Source of the DNA: a virus | Lineage: Duplodnaviria > Heunggongvirae > Uroviricota > Caudoviricetes | Virus record (IMG/VR): IMGVR_UViG_2537561991_000020 | Length of the DNA: 16,195 bases | Direction: 5' to 3' (one strand) | Part shown: positions 2,395-15,865 of the stretch, piece after piece | How positions within the stretch are numbered: the stretch's first letter is position 1 | Layout: each line of letters begins with the position of its first letter | Notes under the pieces: model-generated | The model's input: the letters and a program-made list of their open reading frames with translations, nothing else | Database searches by the model: none | Told to the model about the DNA's origin: nothing | Made by a program: the position numbers and the translations under genes

Positions 2395-4866
2395 TTAAAA
2401 ATCAGCCTGACTCGGGAGCAGTTTTTGCCAGATGGCTGAAACGTATTTCGCCTGGTAACGTGCATCGTTCAGAGCGTTATGGCGTTCACCTTCGAATGGA
2501 ATAGTCGTTCTTGCGTCGAAATCCATCACCAGTCCCAGAGCAACCATCGTTCTTACATCGCGATCATTGGTGTAACGCCACGGGCAGGGGATCCCCTGCC
2601 GTTCATATGAACGGCGTAAAATCACGTTGTCGAAAGTTGCACCGTTACCCCAGACCTGAACAAAAAATTCACCGGAGTTTTCGTCGATAAATTCCCGCAA
2701 TTGTAACAGTGCATCATCTAACGGGATTTCATCGGTCATAATGGCAGATTGCGCTTCGCGTGATTGCTTAAGCCACCATTTAATGGTGTCCCGATCAATG
2801 ACTCCGCCAGCAGTTTCCAGATCAATAGTCTTACTAAATTCCGGTCCCATATCTCCGGTTTGCGGATCGAAAAATATTGCACCTATTGAGATAATCGGGG
2901 CATCAGGATTTTTTCCCATGGTTTCAAGGTCGATCATTAGATGGTCACACGTCCTGCTGGTGGATGTGATAACGTGATGACCGTTCACCGTAATTAAGGG
3001 ATCTGCCGTCTCGCCAGTTTCACTATCGCTGGCGTGATCCTGAGCGCTACCAGCATTCTCCTTGTGTGGATGTTCAGCGCCTTCCATTTCCTCCGGATCA
3101 TTTTCCTGAACTTCAACCTGATTCTCTTCATCGAATGTTTCCTGGTATGTTGCGTCACCCATCACCGCGCCACAATCATGGCAGTTGCCACCACCGCTTT
3201 GACCGCAGGCGGTGCAGACTTTTTCCGGTTCCTGTTGCGCTACTGGCTCAGGTTGTTTCGTTTCTGGCTCGTTTTGTTGCGTATTTGGGCTGTTTTGTTC
3301 CGCTTTCTGGTCGTTCTGTTCCGATTCTTGCTGGTTCTGGTTTACAGAATCGCGGGTTTCCATCCCCTTTACCCATTTCGGATCATTCGGGTCGCTAATC
3401 CCTGCAACAAATTCTCCGCGAGAGGCAGCAAGCAACTTATCGGCGTCAGGCTGGCTGATATTGGCTGCCTGCATAATTTTGTTTACTTCGTCAGCGGTAA
3501 CTTTTACCGGCTCTGGTTGTGCGGTCGTGTCAGATGCACCAGTATTTTGTTGTGAACCTGAGTATGTACTGTTTTTGCGGGCGAAATATTCTTCTTTCGT
3601 GATTTCAGTAGCCCCGGCAGCCAGTGCCTTATCCAGACCAGAAAGTTTGTTTGCGCGACCGTATTTTTCGCCATCCTTGTCGGTGAAGAGGAAGTAGAAC
3701 GGCCCCTCACGCTCTACAGATGGTTCGACTTCCACTTTGCATTCGGTTTTTTCGTTGTCCGGAATTGCCGTTTCCACTGCATCAGTTTCTGGTACTGACG
3801 ACGAGAGAGTATCAGTTGCGCTCTGATTTGTTCCTTCATCTTCAAACACGCCCTTTGTAGTCAGGTATTCAGTAATGTATTTGTTCAGTGCCACAGGGTC
3901 TTTGTGAATGTCGATCGGACGTTCACGGACAAGGCCAAAAATAGTCTGGCGGTCGTAGCGAAGGGCATCAGGCTGTTTGCGCATTGATGTCGAGATACGC
4001 TTCCAGTCTTCGCGGTCGTTGTCGATAACTTCATTTTTTGCCCAGCGATGGATGCTGCCGTCAATGTTTCCGGCATCCACATCACCAGGCCAGAGAGCGT
4101 AGGCCAGTTCGTCATCCAGTGTTTTCCATGTCTGCTTGTATTCGCGATGAATGGCAGCAATGACCAGGCTGATTTTTCCTGTTGAATTTTCAGTGTGCTG
4201 TTGATTGACTCTGGCGCGGGCGAGATCAACAACAGACGTGTATTTTCCGGTTTCCTTGCGTTCACCTTCGCGACGTTTTTTCCAGATGCGCATCTCTGCC
4301 TGAATTTCGGGCCATTTGGCACCAGGCTTACATTTATGCTTAACCCACCCGATGGCATGCAGCTTAAGCTCCGGATACATGGCGTTAACTTCTGGCATTT
4401 TCATCAACGCTTCAACGATATGTCCGTCGAATGTTGCCATGTCTTCCTGCAACAATTCCTGTGCGCTAATAACCATATCAACGGTGATGTTTTCACATGT
4501 GTCGAACTTAACCATGACAGCGTTCTGTACTTCAGGGGCCAGCTTGTCAAAAGTGACGTTCATCGGATCGGATTCAGTCTCAACCGGGACAAAGGAAGCA
4601 GACTCCTCATCCCAGCGGTTTTCCTGCATATATTCAGCATCCCAGGAATCGAGGGCAGGGCGGGGTATGCCGGGTTTATCCTCACAGACAATAAATTTAT
4701 AAGCGCAGTCCTGAGCTGCAGGGAATTGCTCCAGAAATTGCCAATGAAATTTTGCGCGTGCGCGACGCTCATCACCAGCTTCAATGGCAGTGGCCACCGC
4801 AACAGCGCTATCTTCTTTTATGGCCTGTTCATCAGGAATAGCAGCGCAAATAAAGACTTTACTCAT
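2395..4866 (-). CDS. Phage exonuclease-family protein (exodeoxyribonuclease VIII-like) with a C-terminal DnaQ-like DEDDh 3'-5' exonuclease domain
   Basis: 823-aa ORF with a GAGGT ribosome-binding site. The C-terminal region has the motifs MIDLETMG (Exo I, D/E) and [13 protein letters not shown] (Exo III, H...D). A central Q/E/N-rich low-complexity segment and a CxxC-x7-CxxC zinc ribbon ([16 protein letters not shown]) are present. It occupies the exo position between xis and the dicB operon. Confidence 0.75.
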
Positions 4867-4958
4867 TTTGTTTTACCTCATTACAGATTTAAGGGTGAAC
4901 AAATCCCTGCCATTGCTGGCATATAAGAATGAAACCGGATGTTTATTACGGAACTGTT

Positions 4959-5150
4959 TTAAAGACCTGCCGGGATTTCGTTATTATCCTGGTGAATAAC
5001 TTTATCGACCGGGTAACAGTTACCGGGAATTTTCTGTTCGGTTGCTGCAGTCACACACTCCTGCATTGTCCTGTGAACACTGACTGCAATATCAACTGGC
5101 TCTCCGGAAACAAGAAAAACTGTCAGAACAAGTGCAAATGCTGTATTCAT
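4959..5150 (-). CDS. ydfD: YdfD-like small lysis protein (63 aa)
   Basis: The internal-start product MNTAFALVLTVFLVSGEPVDIAVSVHRTMQECVTAATEQKIPGNCYPVDKVIHQDNNEIPAGL closely matches K-12 Qin YdfD as I recall it. Its ATG overlaps the dicB stop (ATGA). Confidence 0.7.
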   Translation of the reverse strand: MNTAFALVLTVFLVSGEPVDIAVSVHRTMQECVTAATEQKIPGNCYPVDKVIHQDNNEIPAGL

Positions 5151-5335
5151 TGCCAGCATCCTTTTTGTATCGGACGTAAACGGGCCAGCATTGAAAGAAT
5201 GCATATTTTATTTAATAGCTCCCGTTCGTGTTTTCTCTTGTTAATGGCATCTTCAGTAAATACAGGGTTACTGATAGTGACACCAATTTCAAAACAACCT
5301 TCAGACGTATTAACGTTTGGTAATAACGTTTCCAT
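5147..5335 (-). CDS. dicB: Cell division inhibitor DicB (62 aa)
   Basis: METLLPNVNTSEGCFEIGVTISNPVFTEDAINKRKHERELLNKICILSMLARLRPIQKGCWQ is near-identical to K-12 DicB as I recall it. ATG at 5335 (plus-strand cat 5333-5335) with a GAGGA ribosome-binding site; the longer track ORF (to 5440) is rejected. Confidence 0.85.
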   Translation of the reverse strand: METLLPNVNTSEGCFEIGVTISNPVFTEDAINKRKHERELLNKICILSMLARLRPIQKGCWQ

Positions 5336-5504
5336 TATCGCGTCCTCAACAATGAATTTTGTGATGTGGTGCCTGGTGCCTCCAGGTGACGTTAACCAGT
5401 TAACAATTAACGCCGGATACAGAGAATCCACCCATAACACTGTTTTTGGTTTTAACTGTTCCGCGTGCGCTCAGCCGCATTCACCGCATCACAAAATTCA
5501 CTTT

Positions 5505-5562
5505 AAAAACGGCGGCAGAGCAGTCACGGAGTAAAACTGATACCGCCAAACGTCACCAGAAA
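5505..5562 (-). ncRNA. dicF: DicF small regulatory RNA (ftsZ-targeting antisense sRNA)
   Basis: The minus strand reads tttctggtgacgtttggcggtatcagttttactccgtgactgctctgccgcc followed by a U-run, essentially the DicF sequence as I recall it. It lies between ydfC and dicB as in the K-12 dicB operon. Confidence 0.75.
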
Positions 5563-5902
5563 ATTGATAACAGAGGGCGTTGCAGCGGGGTTGTCGCTTA
5601 AGCGTATGGTCAACCTGACAACCCGGTGTCCTCAACGGGGAAGGAATAACCCCGCCATACTTACCGCCGCGCCATTTCGCGGAGTGCCACAACCGGAAGC
5701 GCACGGTCGACGAAAATTTAACGACAGGCTATCTATGAACCAGCTACCTCGCCGTGCGCTTTCGCGTTATGGTCTGACTTTTCATGGAAATATCCTTTCA
5801 GTAAACTGTCAGTGCCGGATGCTCACCCATGTCCGGCGCACGCACTCCACCTCACCCGTGGAGAACTCCTTAATTACCAACCTTAGCTTCGTTGGTTAGC
5901 TA

Positions 5903-6121
5903 TTAACGCGGGTATGTAATCATTCTGGCAATGCTTAATGCCGCTGCTTTTTCCAGCCTGGTGATATCCTGCTCCAGAGCGGACAGATTTTCAGCCTGCT
6001 TAGCCCTGGCTTCATTGGCCCATTTCAGATCCTGCGCTGCATTAATTTTCTGGCGCATCCACTCATAAAGTTCATCATCGGTATAGTCTGGCGAGATGAT
6101 GACGGGTTCTCGTTTCTGCAT
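5903..6121 (-). CDS. ydfC: YdfC-like prophage protein (72 aa)
   Basis: 72-aa ORF (MQKREPVIISPDYTDDELYEWMRQKINAAQDLKWANEARAKQ...) in the ydfA-ydfB-ydfC-dicF-dicB order. Size and synteny match K-12 ydfC; I cannot recall its sequence with confidence. Confidence 0.6.
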   Translation of the reverse strand: MQKREPVIISPDYTDDELYEWMRQKINAAQDLKWANEARAKQAENLSALEQDITRLEKAAALSIARMITYPR

Positions 6122-6150
6122 ACTGATTCCTCGCGGTGCTGCTTCGCTTA

Positions 6151-6279
6151 TCAGCCGTTAGATTTTGCCGAGCTGGAAAGCGCCTGTTTAAACTCACTGA
6201 AGCTGAGAGCTTCTTCGCCTTCGGCAAGGCCTTCGAAGTATTCTTCGTAAGCCTTTTCCATGATTGTGTCGAAATCCAT
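6151..6279 (-). CDS. ydfB: YdfB-like small protein (42 aa); not in the ORF track because it is under 60 aa
   Basis: Hand-translated minus-strand ORF: ATG at 6279 (plus-strand cat 6277-6279), product MDFDTIMEKAYEEYFEGLAEGEEALSFSEFKQALSSSQKSNG, stop at 6151-6153. A GGTGA ribosome-binding site precedes it. It sits between ydfA and ydfC. Confidence 0.6.
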   Translation of the reverse strand: MDFDTIMEKAYEEYFEGLAEGEEALSFSEFKQALSSSAKSNG

Positions 6280-6280
6280 A

Positions 6281-6436
6281 TCACTCACCTGAGTTTCTTT
6301 CCAGCCAGCGACGGGCACCATTTTCGGTTTTAAACGTTTTGCTTCTGGTATACGTCATCGCGGTAAACGTGCCGTCCTGGTTGGGAAACACGCCGCATAC
6401 CAGAGATTCGTTGTTGCCAAGATCGATAGTATTCAT
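6281..6436 (-). CDS. ydfA: YdfA-like small protein (51 aa)
   Basis: Internal-start product MNTIDLGNNESLVCGVFPNQDGTFTAMTYTRSKTFKTENGARRWLERNSGE. First gene of the dicB operon downstream of the operator/promoter region, consistent with K-12 ydfA. Confidence 0.65.
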   Translation of the reverse strand: MNTIDLGNNESLVCGVFPNQDGTFTAMTYTRSKTFKTENGARRWLERNSGE

Positions 6437-6511
6437 GCTGACCTCATTTCCCCTTAACGCCGGGGTAGCGGAACTGTTTGCTGAGAACACCGTGCGGTGT
6501 CTTGGTGGAGA

Positions 6512-6542
6512 TTAATTTAGAATAACCTAACAAATGTAGCAA
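6512..6542 (-). promoter_or_regulatory. Candidate sigma70 promoter of the ydfABC-dicF-dicB-ydfD operon (dicBp-like)
   Basis: On the minus strand: -35 TTGCTA (plus 6537-6542), 17-nt spacer, -10 TAAATT (plus 6512-6517). The spacer overlaps an operator-like half palindrome. Confidence 0.4.
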
Positions 6543-6567
6543 GTATTTTTGTTAGATTGGTCTAACA
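6515..6567. promoter_or_regulatory. Operator pair between dicA and ydfA: two 18-bp TGTTAG-N6-CTAACA-type palindromes
   Basis: Perfect inverted repeat tgttagattggtctaaca at 6550-6567. Imperfect copy tttagaataacctaaca at 6516-6532 overlaps the candidate promoter. The same motif recurs in the dicA-dicC intergenic region. Confidence 0.5.
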
Positions 6568-6603
6568 AAAAGAGTGAGGGAATCTAAGTATCTGAAAGGA
6601 GTG

Positions 6604-7011
6604 TTATTTTATTGATTTGTTTTTACGTGCTTTAAGCATTTCTTCGAAGAGTTTATTGAAATTCTCTACTCTTGCGCGCATTTCAGACAGTAAGGCTTCC
6701 TGCTCGGAGGAGGGAAGAGCATCGAATAATTCGATCAATTCTTTGTGGCTGGGAGTTAACTCGGTTTCCACATGAAGTTCTTGTGCTGGCACTGGTGCCT
6801 TGTCTTCGTCACCAAACATTAGCCATGTAGGCGAGCACTTCAGCGCATCAGCTAAAGCAAATAACCGCTTCCCGACCGGTTGGGTTTCGTCTCTTTCCCA
6901 TTGTGAAATTGTGACGTGAGCTACCCCAGCGAGGCGTGCAGCTTCTCGTTGTGTTAGGCGTAATTCTTTTCGTCGTGCCAGAACTCGCTGGCCTAGGGTT
7001 CTTGTATCCAT
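6604..7011 (-). CDS. dicA: DicA-like HTH repressor (cI-like, XRE family)
   Basis: 135-aa ORF. HTH region LTQREAARLAGVAHVTISQWERDETQP and C-terminus ...EMRARVENFNKLFEEMLKARKNK closely resemble K-12 DicA as I recall it. Divergent from dicC. Confidence 0.85.
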   Translation of the reverse strand: MDTRTLGQRVLARRKELRLTQREAARLAGVAHVTISQWERDETQPVGKRLFALADALKCSPTWLMFGDEDKAPVPAQELHVETELTPSHKELIELFDALPSSEQEALLSEMRARVENFNKLFEEMLKARKNKSIK

Positions 7012-7078
7012 AGTTAGGTAATTCTAATTTTTCTTGACTTAGGTATCCCGTGCACATTACTGTTAGGAATATCTAACA
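7012..7078. promoter_or_regulatory. dicA-dicC divergent control region with two TGTTAG-N6-CTAACA-type operators and a candidate dicC -35
   Basis: Perfect palindrome tgttaggaatatctaaca at 7061-7078; imperfect agttaggtaattctaatt at 7012-7029; TTGACT at 7035-7040 as a candidate -35 for dicC with no convincing -10. Confidence 0.5.
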
Positions 7079-7091
7079 AGAGGGGGCTTTG

Positions 7092-7319
7092 ATGCTTAAA
7101 GTTGACGCAATTACTTTTTTTGGCAGCAAAACAAAACTTGCCAATGCCGCAGGAGTGAAACTGGCAAGTGTTGCTGCATGGGGGGAACTGGTTCCTGAAG
7201 GTCGCGCGATGCGCCTGCAAGAGGCATCCGGCGGGGAACTTCAGTACGACCCCAAAGTTTATGACGAATATCGTAAGGCAAAGCGGGCGGGGCGGTTGAA
7301 CAATGAAAATCACCCCTGA
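7092..7319 (+). CDS. dicC: DicC-like Cro-type regulator (75 aa)
   Basis: MLKVDAITFFGSKTKLANAAGVKLASVAAWGELVPEGRAMRLQEASGGELQYDPKVYDEYRKAKRAGRLNNENHP matches K-12 DicC as I recall it. ATG at 7092 is preferred over the TTG at 7089 because the AGGGGG ribosome-binding site (7081-7086) is better spaced. Confidence 0.8.
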   Translation: MLKVDAITFFGSKTKLANAAGVKLASVAAWGELVPEGRAMRLQEASGGELQYDPKVYDEYRKAKRAGRLNNENHP

Positions 7320-7824
7320 ACAGGTTTGTGAGGCTCTGGATGCCTGGGTATGCCGACCAGGAATGACACAGGAGCAGGCGACGATATTAATCACGGAAGC
7401 ATTCTGGGCTCTGAAAGAACGCCCGAACATCGATGTTCAACGCGTCACGTTTAATGATGGCGAGGTTGATCAACGGGCGTTGGGCGTTAACCGGGTGAAG
7501 ATATTCGAACGCTGGAAAGCTATCGACACCAGGGATAAGCGGGAAAAATTCACGGCGCTGATTCCGGCAATTATGGAGGCTATCCGGATCAGCGATTTCA
7601 GGTTGTATTGTGAAATTACTGACGGAAAAAGCATTACGTACATGATCGCCGGGTTAAACAAAGAATATGGTGATGTGGTGGAGTCCGGGCTGCTTTTTGC
7701 GGATCCATCTGTTGTGGAACGTGAGACTGACGAGCTTATAGAAAAAGCTATTGCTTTCAAGCATGCGTATCGTCAGCAATACCAACAAAAAGCTGGATGG
7801 AATTATGAGCCTTCTTTTTGCTGA
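7303..7824 (+). CDS. YdaT-like protein in the cII position
   Basis: 173-aa ORF directly downstream of the cro-like gene with a 17-nt overlap. Weak motif resemblance to Rac YdaT (MKI...; REKFTALIPAIMEAI versus REKIQKLIPAILAIL). Confidence 0.5.
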   Translation: MKITPEQVCEALDAWVCRPGMTQEQATILITEAFWALKERPNIDVQRVTFNDGEVDQRALGVNRVKIFERWKAIDTRDKREKFTALIPAIMEAIRISDFRLYCEITDGKSITYMIAGLNKEYGDVVESGLLFADPSVVERETDELIEKAIAFKHAYRQQYQQKAGWNYEPSFC

Positions 7825-9586: not shown

Positions 9587-10618
9587 ATGTCTATTAATCC
9601 TAAACTTAAGCGTATCGCGCGACGCTATCCAGCGTTATTCCAATATGAGTCCCCCTATATGGCAAGAAAATTAATAATATTCGGCAACGGTCTCGGTATG
9701 GCTTTAGATCCTGCTCACTTCTCCTTAGACAGAGCGTTGGAAGAAATTTGGCATCGCCCCAATTTTTTAAAAGATATCCACAAGCAACTTATCGAGCGTT
9801 GTCTTCAGCGGCAAGGTCCACCAGAAGGAGAACATGAGTTGGATACCCTTCACCAGGCTGTCACATATTGTAAAGCTCTTGCTCAAATTGGAGAGGGGAA
9901 CGTGCATTGGCTTACTGAAGATGGACTAAACTTCCCCAAAATTACCGCCACTTATATTCACAAAGTTGCAACCAGGTTGCATAATTACGATAAAGGTTTG
10001 CCACAAAGATTCGAAAATGCGCTTGTGGAGTTTGTAAAGAACACACACTCACATATCGCGACATTAAACTATGACAAATTATTATACAATTCATTCATAG
10101 ATAATGATATATTCAACGGGTATGATGGGGTTTTAGTTGATGGGATGCTAAGCCACGGATTTTCCTCTGCAGCGCTCGAACGGAAATACAATCGTAGGTT
10201 TGGTTATTATTTGCACTTGCATGGTTCACCACTATTTATTAATCAGCATGAAAATGTTTTAAAACTTTCACGCTCACAACTTACTCTTGACATAGATGAA
10301 CCTAGTGAGCATATAGTGTTAACTCATATAAAAAGAAAACCGTCAGTTATAGCAGCATCTAATGTTCTTTCTACGTACTGGGATTATTTGCAGTTTGCAT
10401 TATTTGAATCAGAAGAAATAATATTGTTTGGTTACTCTGGTCTCGATATTCACCTTAACCTGCTTATTCGACCTTACCTAACCTCTAAGCCTTTAAGAGT
10501 AATTGAGTGGAGCGGTGCTGGTGAACAAAACGCTCGTGAGATATATTGGAAAAACCAGTTGAGACGGGAAGTTACTGTAATTAGGTTGGATAACATCACT
10601 GATTTTATTGATTGGTAG
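9587..10618 (+). CDS. Standalone SIR2-like (SIR2_2-type) putative NAD+-hydrolase; candidate anti-phage defence cargo gene
   Basis: 343-aa ORF in a visibly AT-rich block. Four ordered motifs parallel Thoeris ThsA-type SIR2 domains: IIFGNGLGMALD (Gly-rich loop), TLNYDKLL (conserved Asn), YYLHLHGSP (catalytic His), IILFGYSGLD. Start codon is uncertain because the ribosome-binding site at 9587 is weak. Confidence 0.6.
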   Translation: MSINPKLKRIARRYPALFQYESPYMARKLIIFGNGLGMALDPAHFSLDRALEEIWHRPNFLKDIHKQLIERCLQRQGPPEGEHELDTLHQAVTYCKALAQIGEGNVHWLTEDGLNFPKITATYIHKVATRLHNYDKGLPQRFENALVEFVKNTHSHIATLNYDKLLYNSFIDNDIFNGYDGVLVDGMLSHGFSSAALERKYNRRFGYYLHLHGSPLFINQHENVLKLSRSQLTLDIDEPSEHIVLTHIKRKPSVIAASNVLSTYWDYLQFALFESEEIILFGYSGLDIHLNLLIRPYLTSKPLRVIEWSGAGEQNAREIYWKNQLRREVTVIRLDNITDFIDW

Positions 10619-10778: not shown

Positions 10779-10989
10779 TTTTATATTGGCGAGGTGACGG
10801 GAGTTAAGTAGAATTGCTGCGGGTGCTTGAGGCTGTCTGCCTCGGGCATGCCACCGTAAGGCAGACAGAGAAAAGCCCCAGTTAACATTACGCGTCCTGC
10901 AAGACGCTTAACATTAATCTGAGGCCCAATCTATGCTTCACAAACGTAGGTTAGCCTCTTACGCGCCGAAAGGCAAGGAGAAGCAGGCT

Positions 10990-11145
10990 ATGAAGCAGCA
11001 AAAGGCGATGTTAATCGCCCTGATCGTCATCTGTTTAACCGTCATAGTGACGGCACTGGTAACGAGGAAAGACCTCTGCGAGGTACGAATCCGAACCGGC
11101 CAGACGGAGGTCGCTGTCTTCACAGCTTACGAACCTGAGGAGTAA
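10990..11145 (+). CDS. hokD: Hok-family type I toxin HokD/RelF (51 aa)
   Basis: MKQQKAMLIALIVICLTVIVTALVTRKDLCEVRIRTGQTEVAVFTAYEPEE matches K-12 HokD as I recall it. Internal ATG at 10990; stem-loops typical of hok mRNA leaders lie upstream (10833-10868, 10882-10916). Confidence 0.85.
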   Translation: MKQQKAMLIALIVICLTVIVTALVTRKDLCEVRIRTGQTEVAVFTAYEPEE

Positions 11146-11213
11146 GAGACCAGGCGGGGGAGAAATCCCTCGCCACCGCTGATGTGTCAGGCATCCTCAA
11201 CGCACCCGCACTT

Positions 11214-11245
11214 AACCCGCTTCGGCGGGTTTTTGTTTTTATTTT
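11214..11245 (+). terminator. Rho-independent terminator after hokD
   Basis: Stem cccgc (11216-11220), loop ttcg, stem gcggg (11225-11229), followed by tttttgtttttatttt. Confidence 0.6.
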
Positions 11246-11361
11246 CAACGCATTTGAAGTTCTGGACGGTGTCGGAATAGAATCAAAAATACTTAAGTAG
11301 CGCGCAGGGATAAGAGGGATGGTCCCTTAAAGGGGAGAGCTAATTATCCGGAAGGATTCTG

Positions 11362-11613
11362 ATGATGAACATCGAAGAACTGCGTAAAATTTTTTGTGAA
11401 GATGGCCTCTATGCTGTGTGCGTTGAAAATGGAAATATTGTTAGTCATTACCGCATTGTGTGTTTGCGAAAGAATGGGGCTGCGTTAATTAATTTTGTGG
11501 ATGGTCGAGTGACAGACGGATTTATCTTGCGCGAAGGTGAGTTTGTCACTTCATTACAGGCACTGAAAGAGATCGGAATAAAAGCTGGCTTTTCTGCTTT
11601 TTCAGAAGAATAA
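11362..11613 (+). CDS. Hypothetical prophage protein (83 aa; Rem-like by size and position)
   Basis: ORF with ribosome-binding site ggaagga. Follows hokD as rem does in K-12 Qin, and K-12 Rem is also 83 aa as I recall; the sequence itself was not verified. Confidence 0.5.
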   Translation: MMNIEELRKIFCEDGLYAVCVENGNIVSHYRIVCLRKNGAALINFVDGRVTDGFILREGEFVTSLQALKEIGIKAGFSAFSEE

Positions 11614-15615: not shown

Positions 15616-15691
15616 GGCCCTTTAGCTCAGTGGTGAGAGCGAGCGACTCATAATCGCCAGGTCGCTGGTTCAAATCCAGCAAGGGCCACCA
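15616..15691 (+). tRNA. tRNA with CAU anticodon (tRNA-Ile2, ileZ-like, or tRNA-Met)
   Basis: Cloverleaf folded by hand: acceptor ggccctt/aagggcc, anticodon loop ctCATaa, T-loop ggttcaaatcc, discriminator A and encoded CCA. Confidence 0.85.
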
Positions 15692-15698
15692 TCACATA

Positions 15699-15775
15699 CC
15701 GCTATTAGCTCATCAGGAAAGAGCGCCAGCCTTCGAAGCTGGCTGCGCGGGGTTCAAGTCCCCGATGGCGGTCCA
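15699..15775 (+). tRNA. tRNA-Arg (anticodon UCG), argN-like
   Basis: Acceptor ccgctat/atggcgg (one G-U pair), anticodon stem ccagc/gctgg with loop cTTCGaa (U33, anticodon UCG), T-arm cgggg-ttcaagt-ccccg, encoded CCA. Confidence 0.75.
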
Positions 15776-15788
15776 TTATCTGCATCAT

Positions 15789-15865
15789 GCGTTGTTAGCT
15801 CAGCCGGACAGAGCAATTGCCTTCTAAGCAATCGGTCACTGGTTCGAATCCAGTACAACGCGCCA
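15789..15865 (+). tRNA. tRNA-Arg (anticodon UCU), argO-like
   Basis: Acceptor gcgttgt/acaacgc, anticodon loop cTTCTaa (anticodon UCU), T-loop ggttcgaatcc, encoded CCA. Confidence 0.85.

Follow-up and report, generated by a model that had tools for sequence, protein, structure and literature searches.

The best described relative of the locus reported here is the dicA-dicC-dicBp region of the Qin (Kim) prophage of Escherichia coli K-12 (Bejar et al. 1986/1988; Yun et al. 2012; Ragunathan et al. 2023). In that prophage DicA represses both dicC and the promoter of the dicB operon, dicBp; deletion of dicA derepresses dicBp 22-fold, expression of Rem, the antirepressor that relieves DicA repression, derepresses it 165-fold, and deletion of dicC is without effect on it (Ragunathan et al. 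2023, PMC10448788). Binding to the operator Oc (TTGTTAGTCATAACTAACAA) depends on dicA in vivo and is abolished by a single base change, and a shift was obtained with crude extract; the sites Om and Oa, when taken alone, showed no DicA binding in vivo (Yun et al. 2012, PMC3441716). The DicA site is annotated at -8 to +12 of dicCp and a plasmid-borne copy of it is costly for the cell by titration of DicA, a protein present at about 20-25 copies per cell. As cited in PMC10448788, Bejar 1988 described operator triplets in both intergenic regions, and in 2020 the binding location of DicA at dicB was listed as unknown, with low evidence. ChIP-seq of K-12 DicC (2024 preprint) located two binding regions, one to either side of dicA, and a palindromic motif TT(A/C/T)G...C(G/A/T)AA.

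More distant systems share the general plan. The immC region of phage P22 encodes the c2 repressor, whose N-domain is homologous to that of the repressor studied here, and a Cro of the P22_Cro family, and has 18-bp two-fold symmetric operators at PR-like and PL-like promoters, as found in our locus. The consensus of the P22 operators is ANTNAAG-N4-CTTNANT; the TGTTAG/CTAACA arms described below do not fit it, sharing only the TTA at positions 3-5, and two sites per side were recognisable here, not three as in P22. In E. coli O157:H7, prophage CP-933P (PaaR2/YdaS/YdaT) is likewise lambdoid in layout: its repressor gene is leaderless, a Cro-like gene is followed by YdaT, operators are present at the PR/PRM and PL regions, and the system is bistable (PMC8630535); it differs from our locus in the repressor family, in the operators and in the toxin-antitoxin pair inserted after the repressor.

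A Qin-like prophage carrying a DicA relative

The DNA under analysis, a stretch of 16,195 bp hereafter called the window, is a Qin-like lambdoid prophage of E. coli, more complete than K-12 Qin and adjoining yccA. A 1.3-kb query taken from it (window 6100-7400) was 99.9% identical to a prophage located beside yccA in E. coli FDAARGOS_1059, and the gene annotation was partly taken from a RefSeq record showing 99.9% identity over the same positions. Gene order and strands are those of K-12 Qin. The repressor gene (6604..7011, minus strand) encodes a 135-aa protein of the same architecture as in K-12 and is flanked on the right, in divergent orientation, by dicC (7092..7319, plus strand), which codes for a Cro-like protein of the P22_Cro family (Pfam, E=1.9e-13) that is 83% identical to K-12 DicC. 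Downstream of dicC lies a ydaT-like gene (7303..7824, plus strand; Pfam YdaT_toxin match), YdaT being a CII analogue in related prophages (PMC8630535).

On the other side of the repressor gene an early-left operon extends over 2395..6436 on the minus strand, as delimited from ORFs, Rfam, the RefSeq record and a Pfam DUF1391 match. It comprises ydfA (6281-6436), ydfB (6151-6279), ydfC (5903-6121), the DicF sRNA (5510-5561; Rfam, 72.5 bits), dicB (5147-5335), a ydfD-like gene of the DUF1482 family (4959-5150) and a large exonuclease gene (2395-4866), all of them on the minus strand; the ydfABC-dicF-dicB-ydfD succession is thus common to both prophages. So is rem, whose homologue lies at 11362..11613 (plus strand) and is annotated as rem in the near-identical record.

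Upstream of this rem homologue there are a terminator-like hairpin (about 11205-11245) and a plausible promoter (about 11254-11283). When this upstream region was inspected by eye, neither a TGTTAG-type site nor a LexA-box-like sequence was seen. Other features of the window include a 343-aa SIR2-family ORF (9587-10618, plus strand) placed between the replication genes and hok/sok, with weak PADLOC matches to Aga_SIR2 and PDC-S21 (E about 1e-5 to 1e-6), which may be a prophage-borne defence gene. The late region contains a sok antitoxin RNA (10821-10995; Rfam, 116 bits), with hokD annotated close by, and three clustered tRNA genes (Met-CAT, Arg-TCG and Arg-TCT) at 15616-15865.

The original prediction, which was made from the DNA alone, had placed the repressor, dicC and the genes of the left operon correctly and called the first of these dicA. 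The name is right in kind, but the product is 57% identical to K-12 DicA over 132 aa; judged by its sequence, it is a DicA relative, encoded by a second allele of the Qin-type module and not by the K-12 gene (we keep the name dicA for its position). The N-domain matches that of P22 C2 (E=1e-18), and Pfam returned HTH_3 and other HTH-type matches together with a weak MqsA_antitoxin match below the cut-off. No peptidase S24 domain was found by Pfam in the repressor, which differs from P22 c2 in having a short two-helix C-domain instead of the LexA-like cleavable one. The C-terminal motif ELxELFxALPxSEQ...RARVxNF was invariant in 35 homologues. An AlphaFold model calculated on 35 homologues (mean pLDDT 85.5) could be superposed, with an rmsd of 0.7 A, on the complex of P22 c2 with its operator, and in it the C-domain is modelled as one short and one long helix, for which no solved homologue was found. 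Yun et al. suggested that the C-domain of DicA resembles the winged helix of RovA/SlyA (PMC3441716); we did not retain this likeness, as no MarR/SlyA-type protein appeared among the 50 Foldseek matches listed and only two helices are modelled.

Two strong and two weak sites flank the repressor gene

When the whole window was searched for TGTTAG-N6-CTAACA without mismatches, only two sites were obtained, at 6550-6567 and 7061-7078. Dinucleotide shuffles of the window contained a mean of 0.01 such sites, none of 200 shuffles reaching two, and an analytic estimate from the base composition gave an expectation of 0.0011. The two sites had been described beforehand as perfect 18-bp palindromes; their positions proved exact, but palindromy is confined to the 6-bp arms, the 6-bp centres (ATTGGT and GAATAT) not being palindromic. 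At 6550-6567 the perfect arms extend outwards to 10 bp (TTTTTGTTAG / CTAACAAAAA), spanning 6546-6571. Two imperfect copies had also been foreseen and were found, ATTTAGAATAACCTAACA at 6515-6532 with 2 mismatches (it begins at 6515 and not, as had been proposed, at 6516) and a second one at 7012-7029 with 3 mismatches, so that the repressor gene is indeed bracketed by sites on both sides.

The statistical standing of the imperfect copies depends on the range considered. Over the whole window there were 10 matches with up to 3 mismatches against 5.4 expected, a number reached by 8 of 200 shuffles, and the imperfect copies alone are not above chance at this scale; within 60 bp of a perfect site only 0.0025 matches are expected if 2 mismatches are tolerated, and 0.026 if 3 are. 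At that last threshold no third operator was found on either side. The four sites are not equivalent, two of them being strong and two weak.

We give practically no credit to the view that these repeats arose by chance, or that the segment 6546-6571 is an RNA hairpin acting as the terminator of dicA. The 3' region of dicA does contain an 11-bp stem (-9.4 kcal/mol, z = -2.4), but this stem is A/U-rich and without a U-tract, and a terminator scan found nothing there, so that we rejected the terminator reading; moreover, in K-12 the corresponding site is imperfect and no such hairpin is expected from it, and the arms are found again in each of the three remaining sites. Chance is excluded by the two perfect sites against 0.01 expected.

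A consensus promoter scan of 6350-7250 found no promoter, so we relied on homology to K-12 and on conservation to assign them. For dicC, a -35 hexamer TTGACT (7034..7039, plus strand) is homologous to the -35 of K-12 dicCp and invariant in the alignment (as AGTCAA), the -10 being ambiguous in this allele. The start of dicC would lie near 7068 if the K-12 annotation of the operator at -8 to +12 is carried over. The strong right site TGTTAGGAATATCTAACA (7061..7078; 7060-7079 as a 20-mer) is a perfect Oc-type operator that begins 20 bp after this -35 (21 bp in K-12) and would overlap the -10/+1 region of the PR-like promoter. An ACTTAG half-site overlapping the dicC -35 was considered as a further operator and discarded, since it is not conserved in K-12.

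The weak right site AGTTAGGTAATTCTAATT (7012..7029) abuts the ATG of dicA, so that one pair of sites lies within the dicA-dicC divergent region, as had been stated. It probably corresponds to K-12 Oa, a correspondence that we infer from the names. Nine nucleotides before the ATG there is a -10-like hexamer TAGAAT (7021..7026, minus strand) that presumably belongs to the dicA promoter; dicA has no Shine-Dalgarno sequence, and the K-12 dicA mRNA is leaderless by dRNA-seq (PMC4681348). As the weak site overlaps both this hexamer and the leaderless start, it would act on dicA itself, in the manner of OR3 on PRM, and not on dicC. Since the presumed promoters of dicA and dicC overlap, the activation of dicA reported for DicA at Oc could reflect release of dicA from competition with the strong dicC promoter.

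The other pair had been placed over the promoter of the ydfABC-dicF-dicB operon, and this also agrees with what we found. The candidate PL-like promoter (6514..6542, minus strand) consists of a -35 TTGCTA (6542..6537), a 17-bp spacer and a -10 TAAATT (6519..6514); within the -35, CTTG is invariant among the aligned loci, the K-12 counterpart TTGACC-17-TAATCT stands in the same register, and the 8 of 12 consensus matches of the candidate are below the scan threshold. A back-count from the RNase III cleavage position given in the literature (813/814) puts position 1 near 6512, a rough figure given that the origin of the numbering was assumed. The distal left operator TGTTAGATTGGTCTAACA (6550..6567, perfect match) ends 7 bp upstream of the -35, and the proximal left operator (6515..6532; TGTTAGGTTATTCTAAAT when read on the minus strand) covers the spacer and five of the six -10 bases, the pair thus flanking the -35 and covering the -10.

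Close to the presumed 5' end of the dicB-operon mRNA the minus-strand transcript contains an inverted repeat, AACACCGTGCGGTGTC (6486-6501), which could give a small hairpin; the repeat is identical in K-12-type loci and is replaced by a different inverted repeat at the same place in Citrobacter. Folding of the dicB-operon leader was no better than that of shuffled sequence (z = -0.18).

Comparison with the published K-12 operator data, which the original prediction had proposed, showed that the half-site is the same as that of Oc (PMC3441716). At the K-12 locus Oc reads TTGTTAGTTATGACTAACAA, with arms as in the window, a 3-mismatch copy abuts the dicA ATG and two 2-mismatch copies lie downstream of dicA; the four positions are shared, with centre spacings of 50 and 35 bp in K-12 and 49 and 35 bp in the window, and in both of them Oc and the distal left site are 511 bp apart. 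The two alleles differ in the spacers and in the left sites, the distal one being perfect with 10-bp arms in the window whereas both K-12 left sites have 2 mismatches each; a counterpart of K-12 Om was not seen in the window at up to 3 mismatches. The locus thus has the features of a Qin/DicA-type module: the repressor, the divergent dicC, the Oc site and, directly downstream of dicA, a candidate promoter flanked by operator-like repeats.

The arrangement also follows a logic like that of lambda, in which repressor and Cro would share operators, a weak site would lie over the promoter of the (here leaderless) repressor mRNA, and a second set of operators would govern a leftward early operon, which carries a cell-division inhibitor. 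It departs from lambda in three respects: beyond the HTH the repressor fold is unrelated, the presumed starts of dicA and dicC are about 57 bp apart with overlapping promoters, and induction would proceed through an antirepressor.

Fixed positions and changing half-sites among immunity groups

A scan with one genome per species yielded 21 loci encoding relatives of the repressor. All four sites were present at fixed offsets in 8 loci, found in E. coli, E. albertii, E. ruysiae, Citrobacter and Rahnella; offsets were compared among loci of E. albertii, E. ruysiae, Citrobacter (two), the K-12 type (two) and Rahnella. On the right, measured from the repressor ATG, the Oc-type site stands at -67/-68 (9 loci) and the Oa-type site at -18 (all TGTTAG-type loci); on the left, measured after the repressor stop codon, the distal site stands at +36..+42 and the proximal one at +71..+77. 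Sites with 0-1 mismatches occurred at those offsets only in all 9 TGTTAG-type loci scanned. The two left sites are 35-36 bp apart, centre to centre, in each of the 8 four-site loci, with an invariant GTTAG arm in the proximal one. When the two intergenic regions were aligned, 38 of the 48 columns in the arms were invariant, compared with 5 of 24 in the spacers and 28 of 106 in the flanks.

The module also occurs in a phage. PhiR42_1 (PV340562, a complete genome record from E. coli ECOR13; locus L024) carries a K-12-type module with the same four sites and a cI identical to K-12 DicA, which argues that we are dealing with a normal phage immunity region and not with a relic specific to K-12.

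Where the recognition helix of the repressor differs, different palindromes occupy the corresponding positions, both upstream of the gene and downstream of it. In the group of phage mEp460 (helix VSGSSISLWES) the site is ATTGAG-N4-CTCAAT; loci of C. braakii and Superficieibacter (L010 and L015; helices ISHATISLWES and VSYASISLWES) have TTGTTGAG..., and loci with the helix SSVSVFKWE have arms of the AACTT type. The weak sites next to the ATG change with the group as well, ATTAAGATATCTAAAT going along with ATTGAG-N4-CTCAAT and ATTTAG..CTAACT with the TGTTAG operators. This covariation of protein and site, observed here along with the sequence, position and conservation of the sites, is on sequence grounds the strongest non-experimental argument for their being repressor operators; it rests on the groups with clear sites, the automated search for upstream palindromes having failed in four divergent loci.

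Across the immunity groups of the DicA family (L010, L012-L015, L017-L020 and L025) we further observed that the half-sites vary, with the positions and the TTGAC of the dicC -35 remaining fixed.

These data bear on a narrower reading, according to which only the two perfect palindromes are real operators and the imperfect copies are conserved as promoter or start elements of dicA (its -10 and leaderless start) and of dicBp (spacer and -10) that stay unoccupied at physiological DicA levels. We regard it as doubtful, though it has several points in its favour: the failure of K-12 Oa and Om to bind DicA on their own in vivo (PMC3441716), the chance-level number of matches with up to 3 mismatches over the window, and the low number of DicA molecules in the cell. 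A -10-like hexamer stands at the TAGAAT position in every immunity group, moreover, and this -10, along with the translation start, could partly explain the conservation of the 3-mismatch site. Nevertheless, the weak sites change with the immunity group just as the strong ones do, and the proximal left site keeps its invariant arm and its fixed distance from the distal site. Weak sites may need cooperative help that single-site tests would miss, and dicBp of K-12 is repressed 22-fold although neither of its left sites is perfect.

Repression, possible looping and the part of DicC

Taking these lines together, we consider the four sites to be operators of a Qin/P22-like immunity switch in the lambdoid prophage beside yccA, with a probability of about 85%. 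A dimer of the DicA-family repressor would read the 6-bp TGTTAG/CTAACA arms of the 18-bp sites through its P22-c2-like HTH. By analogy with K-12, where binding of DicA to Oc, repression of dicC and dicBp, and binding of DicC on both sides of dicA come from experiments, occupation of the strong site at 7061-7078 on the -10/+1 region of the dicC promoter would keep dicC, ydaT and the replication genes off. The weak site at 7012-7029 would, if occupied, mediate negative autoregulation of dicA as well as its repression by the Cro-like DicC. On the left, the strong site just upstream of the dicB-operon -35 and the weaker one over the spacer and -10 would jointly exclude RNA polymerase and silence ydfABC, DicF, DicB and YdfD, the promoters of this allele being those presumed above. 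Since the repressor has no peptidase domain, derepression would take place through the Rem antirepressor and not through RecA cleavage. The original prediction that one repressor controls both dicC and the division-inhibitor operon is in keeping with K-12, where DicA does both (PMC10448788), but the four sites are not equivalent, and the weak right site would rather act on dicA.

The same sites could be thought of as targets mainly of the Cro-like DicC and not of DicA, which seems to us quite improbable. It is true that in K-12 the strongest ChIP-seq signal of DicC is found here, with one region to the left and one to the right of dicA and a palindromic motif that fits the sites. The deletion phenotypes, however, point to DicA, for loss of dicC leaves dicBp unaffected and loss of dicA derepresses it (PMC10448788), and Oc binding depends on dicA (PMC3441716). 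Sharing of operators between repressor and Cro is in any case the norm in lambdoid switches, so that DicC binding would be an addition to repression by the DicA-family protein and not an alternative to it.

It had also been suggested that the repressor loops the DNA across the gene of roughly 500 bp, a claim for which we found no support. In this proposal DicA bound at the right and left pairs interacts to enclose dicA in a loop of about 510 bp, giving tighter repression in the way of lambda CI at OL and OR; we judge it unlikely. There are strong sites on both sides, 511 bp apart, a distance that is the same in the 57%-identical K-12-type allele, and with so low a repressor copy number cooperativity would help. 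The protein has an HTH followed by a helical C-domain, and the model could be aligned with SinR, albeit loosely (rmsd about 10 A), SinR being a protein that forms tetramers. Against this, the two sets of operators are separated by 511 bp in five loci, by 518 bp in two (Citrobacter) and by 502 bp in one (Rahnella), values that are not helically phased, although at a separation of about 500 bp phase has little influence. The agreement of the two E. coli alleles at 511 bp may be due to nothing more than genes of equal length, and in the model the C-domain comprises just two helices.

A more specific extension, which must be taken as speculative, is that a tetramer of DicA bridges the two perfect palindromes 511 bp apart and that, relatedly, co-resident Qin-like prophages may cross-repress their division-inhibitor operons. 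The latter is conceivable because alleles only 57% identical share the TGTTAG half-site. If true, such a tetramer loop would explain how dicB and dicF are tightly silenced with some 20 repressor molecules per cell.

Setting looping aside, the reading of the four sites as operators of a Qin/P22-like switch is not new as a regulatory scheme: it is the published Qin model, and the layout has been described for K-12 since 1988. The sites govern dicB, DicF and ydfD, whose expression stops division or lyses the cell, and they thus serve as a safety catch for a prophage module that is very common in E. coli: of 5,426 complete genomes, 3,888 contain matches to parts of the 1.3-kb query. With the established model unchanged, the operators of a second allele and the helix-linked half-sites across Enterobacterales allow prophages to be sorted simply into immunity groups, and these half-site groups make it possible to predict cross-repression between co-resident prophages.
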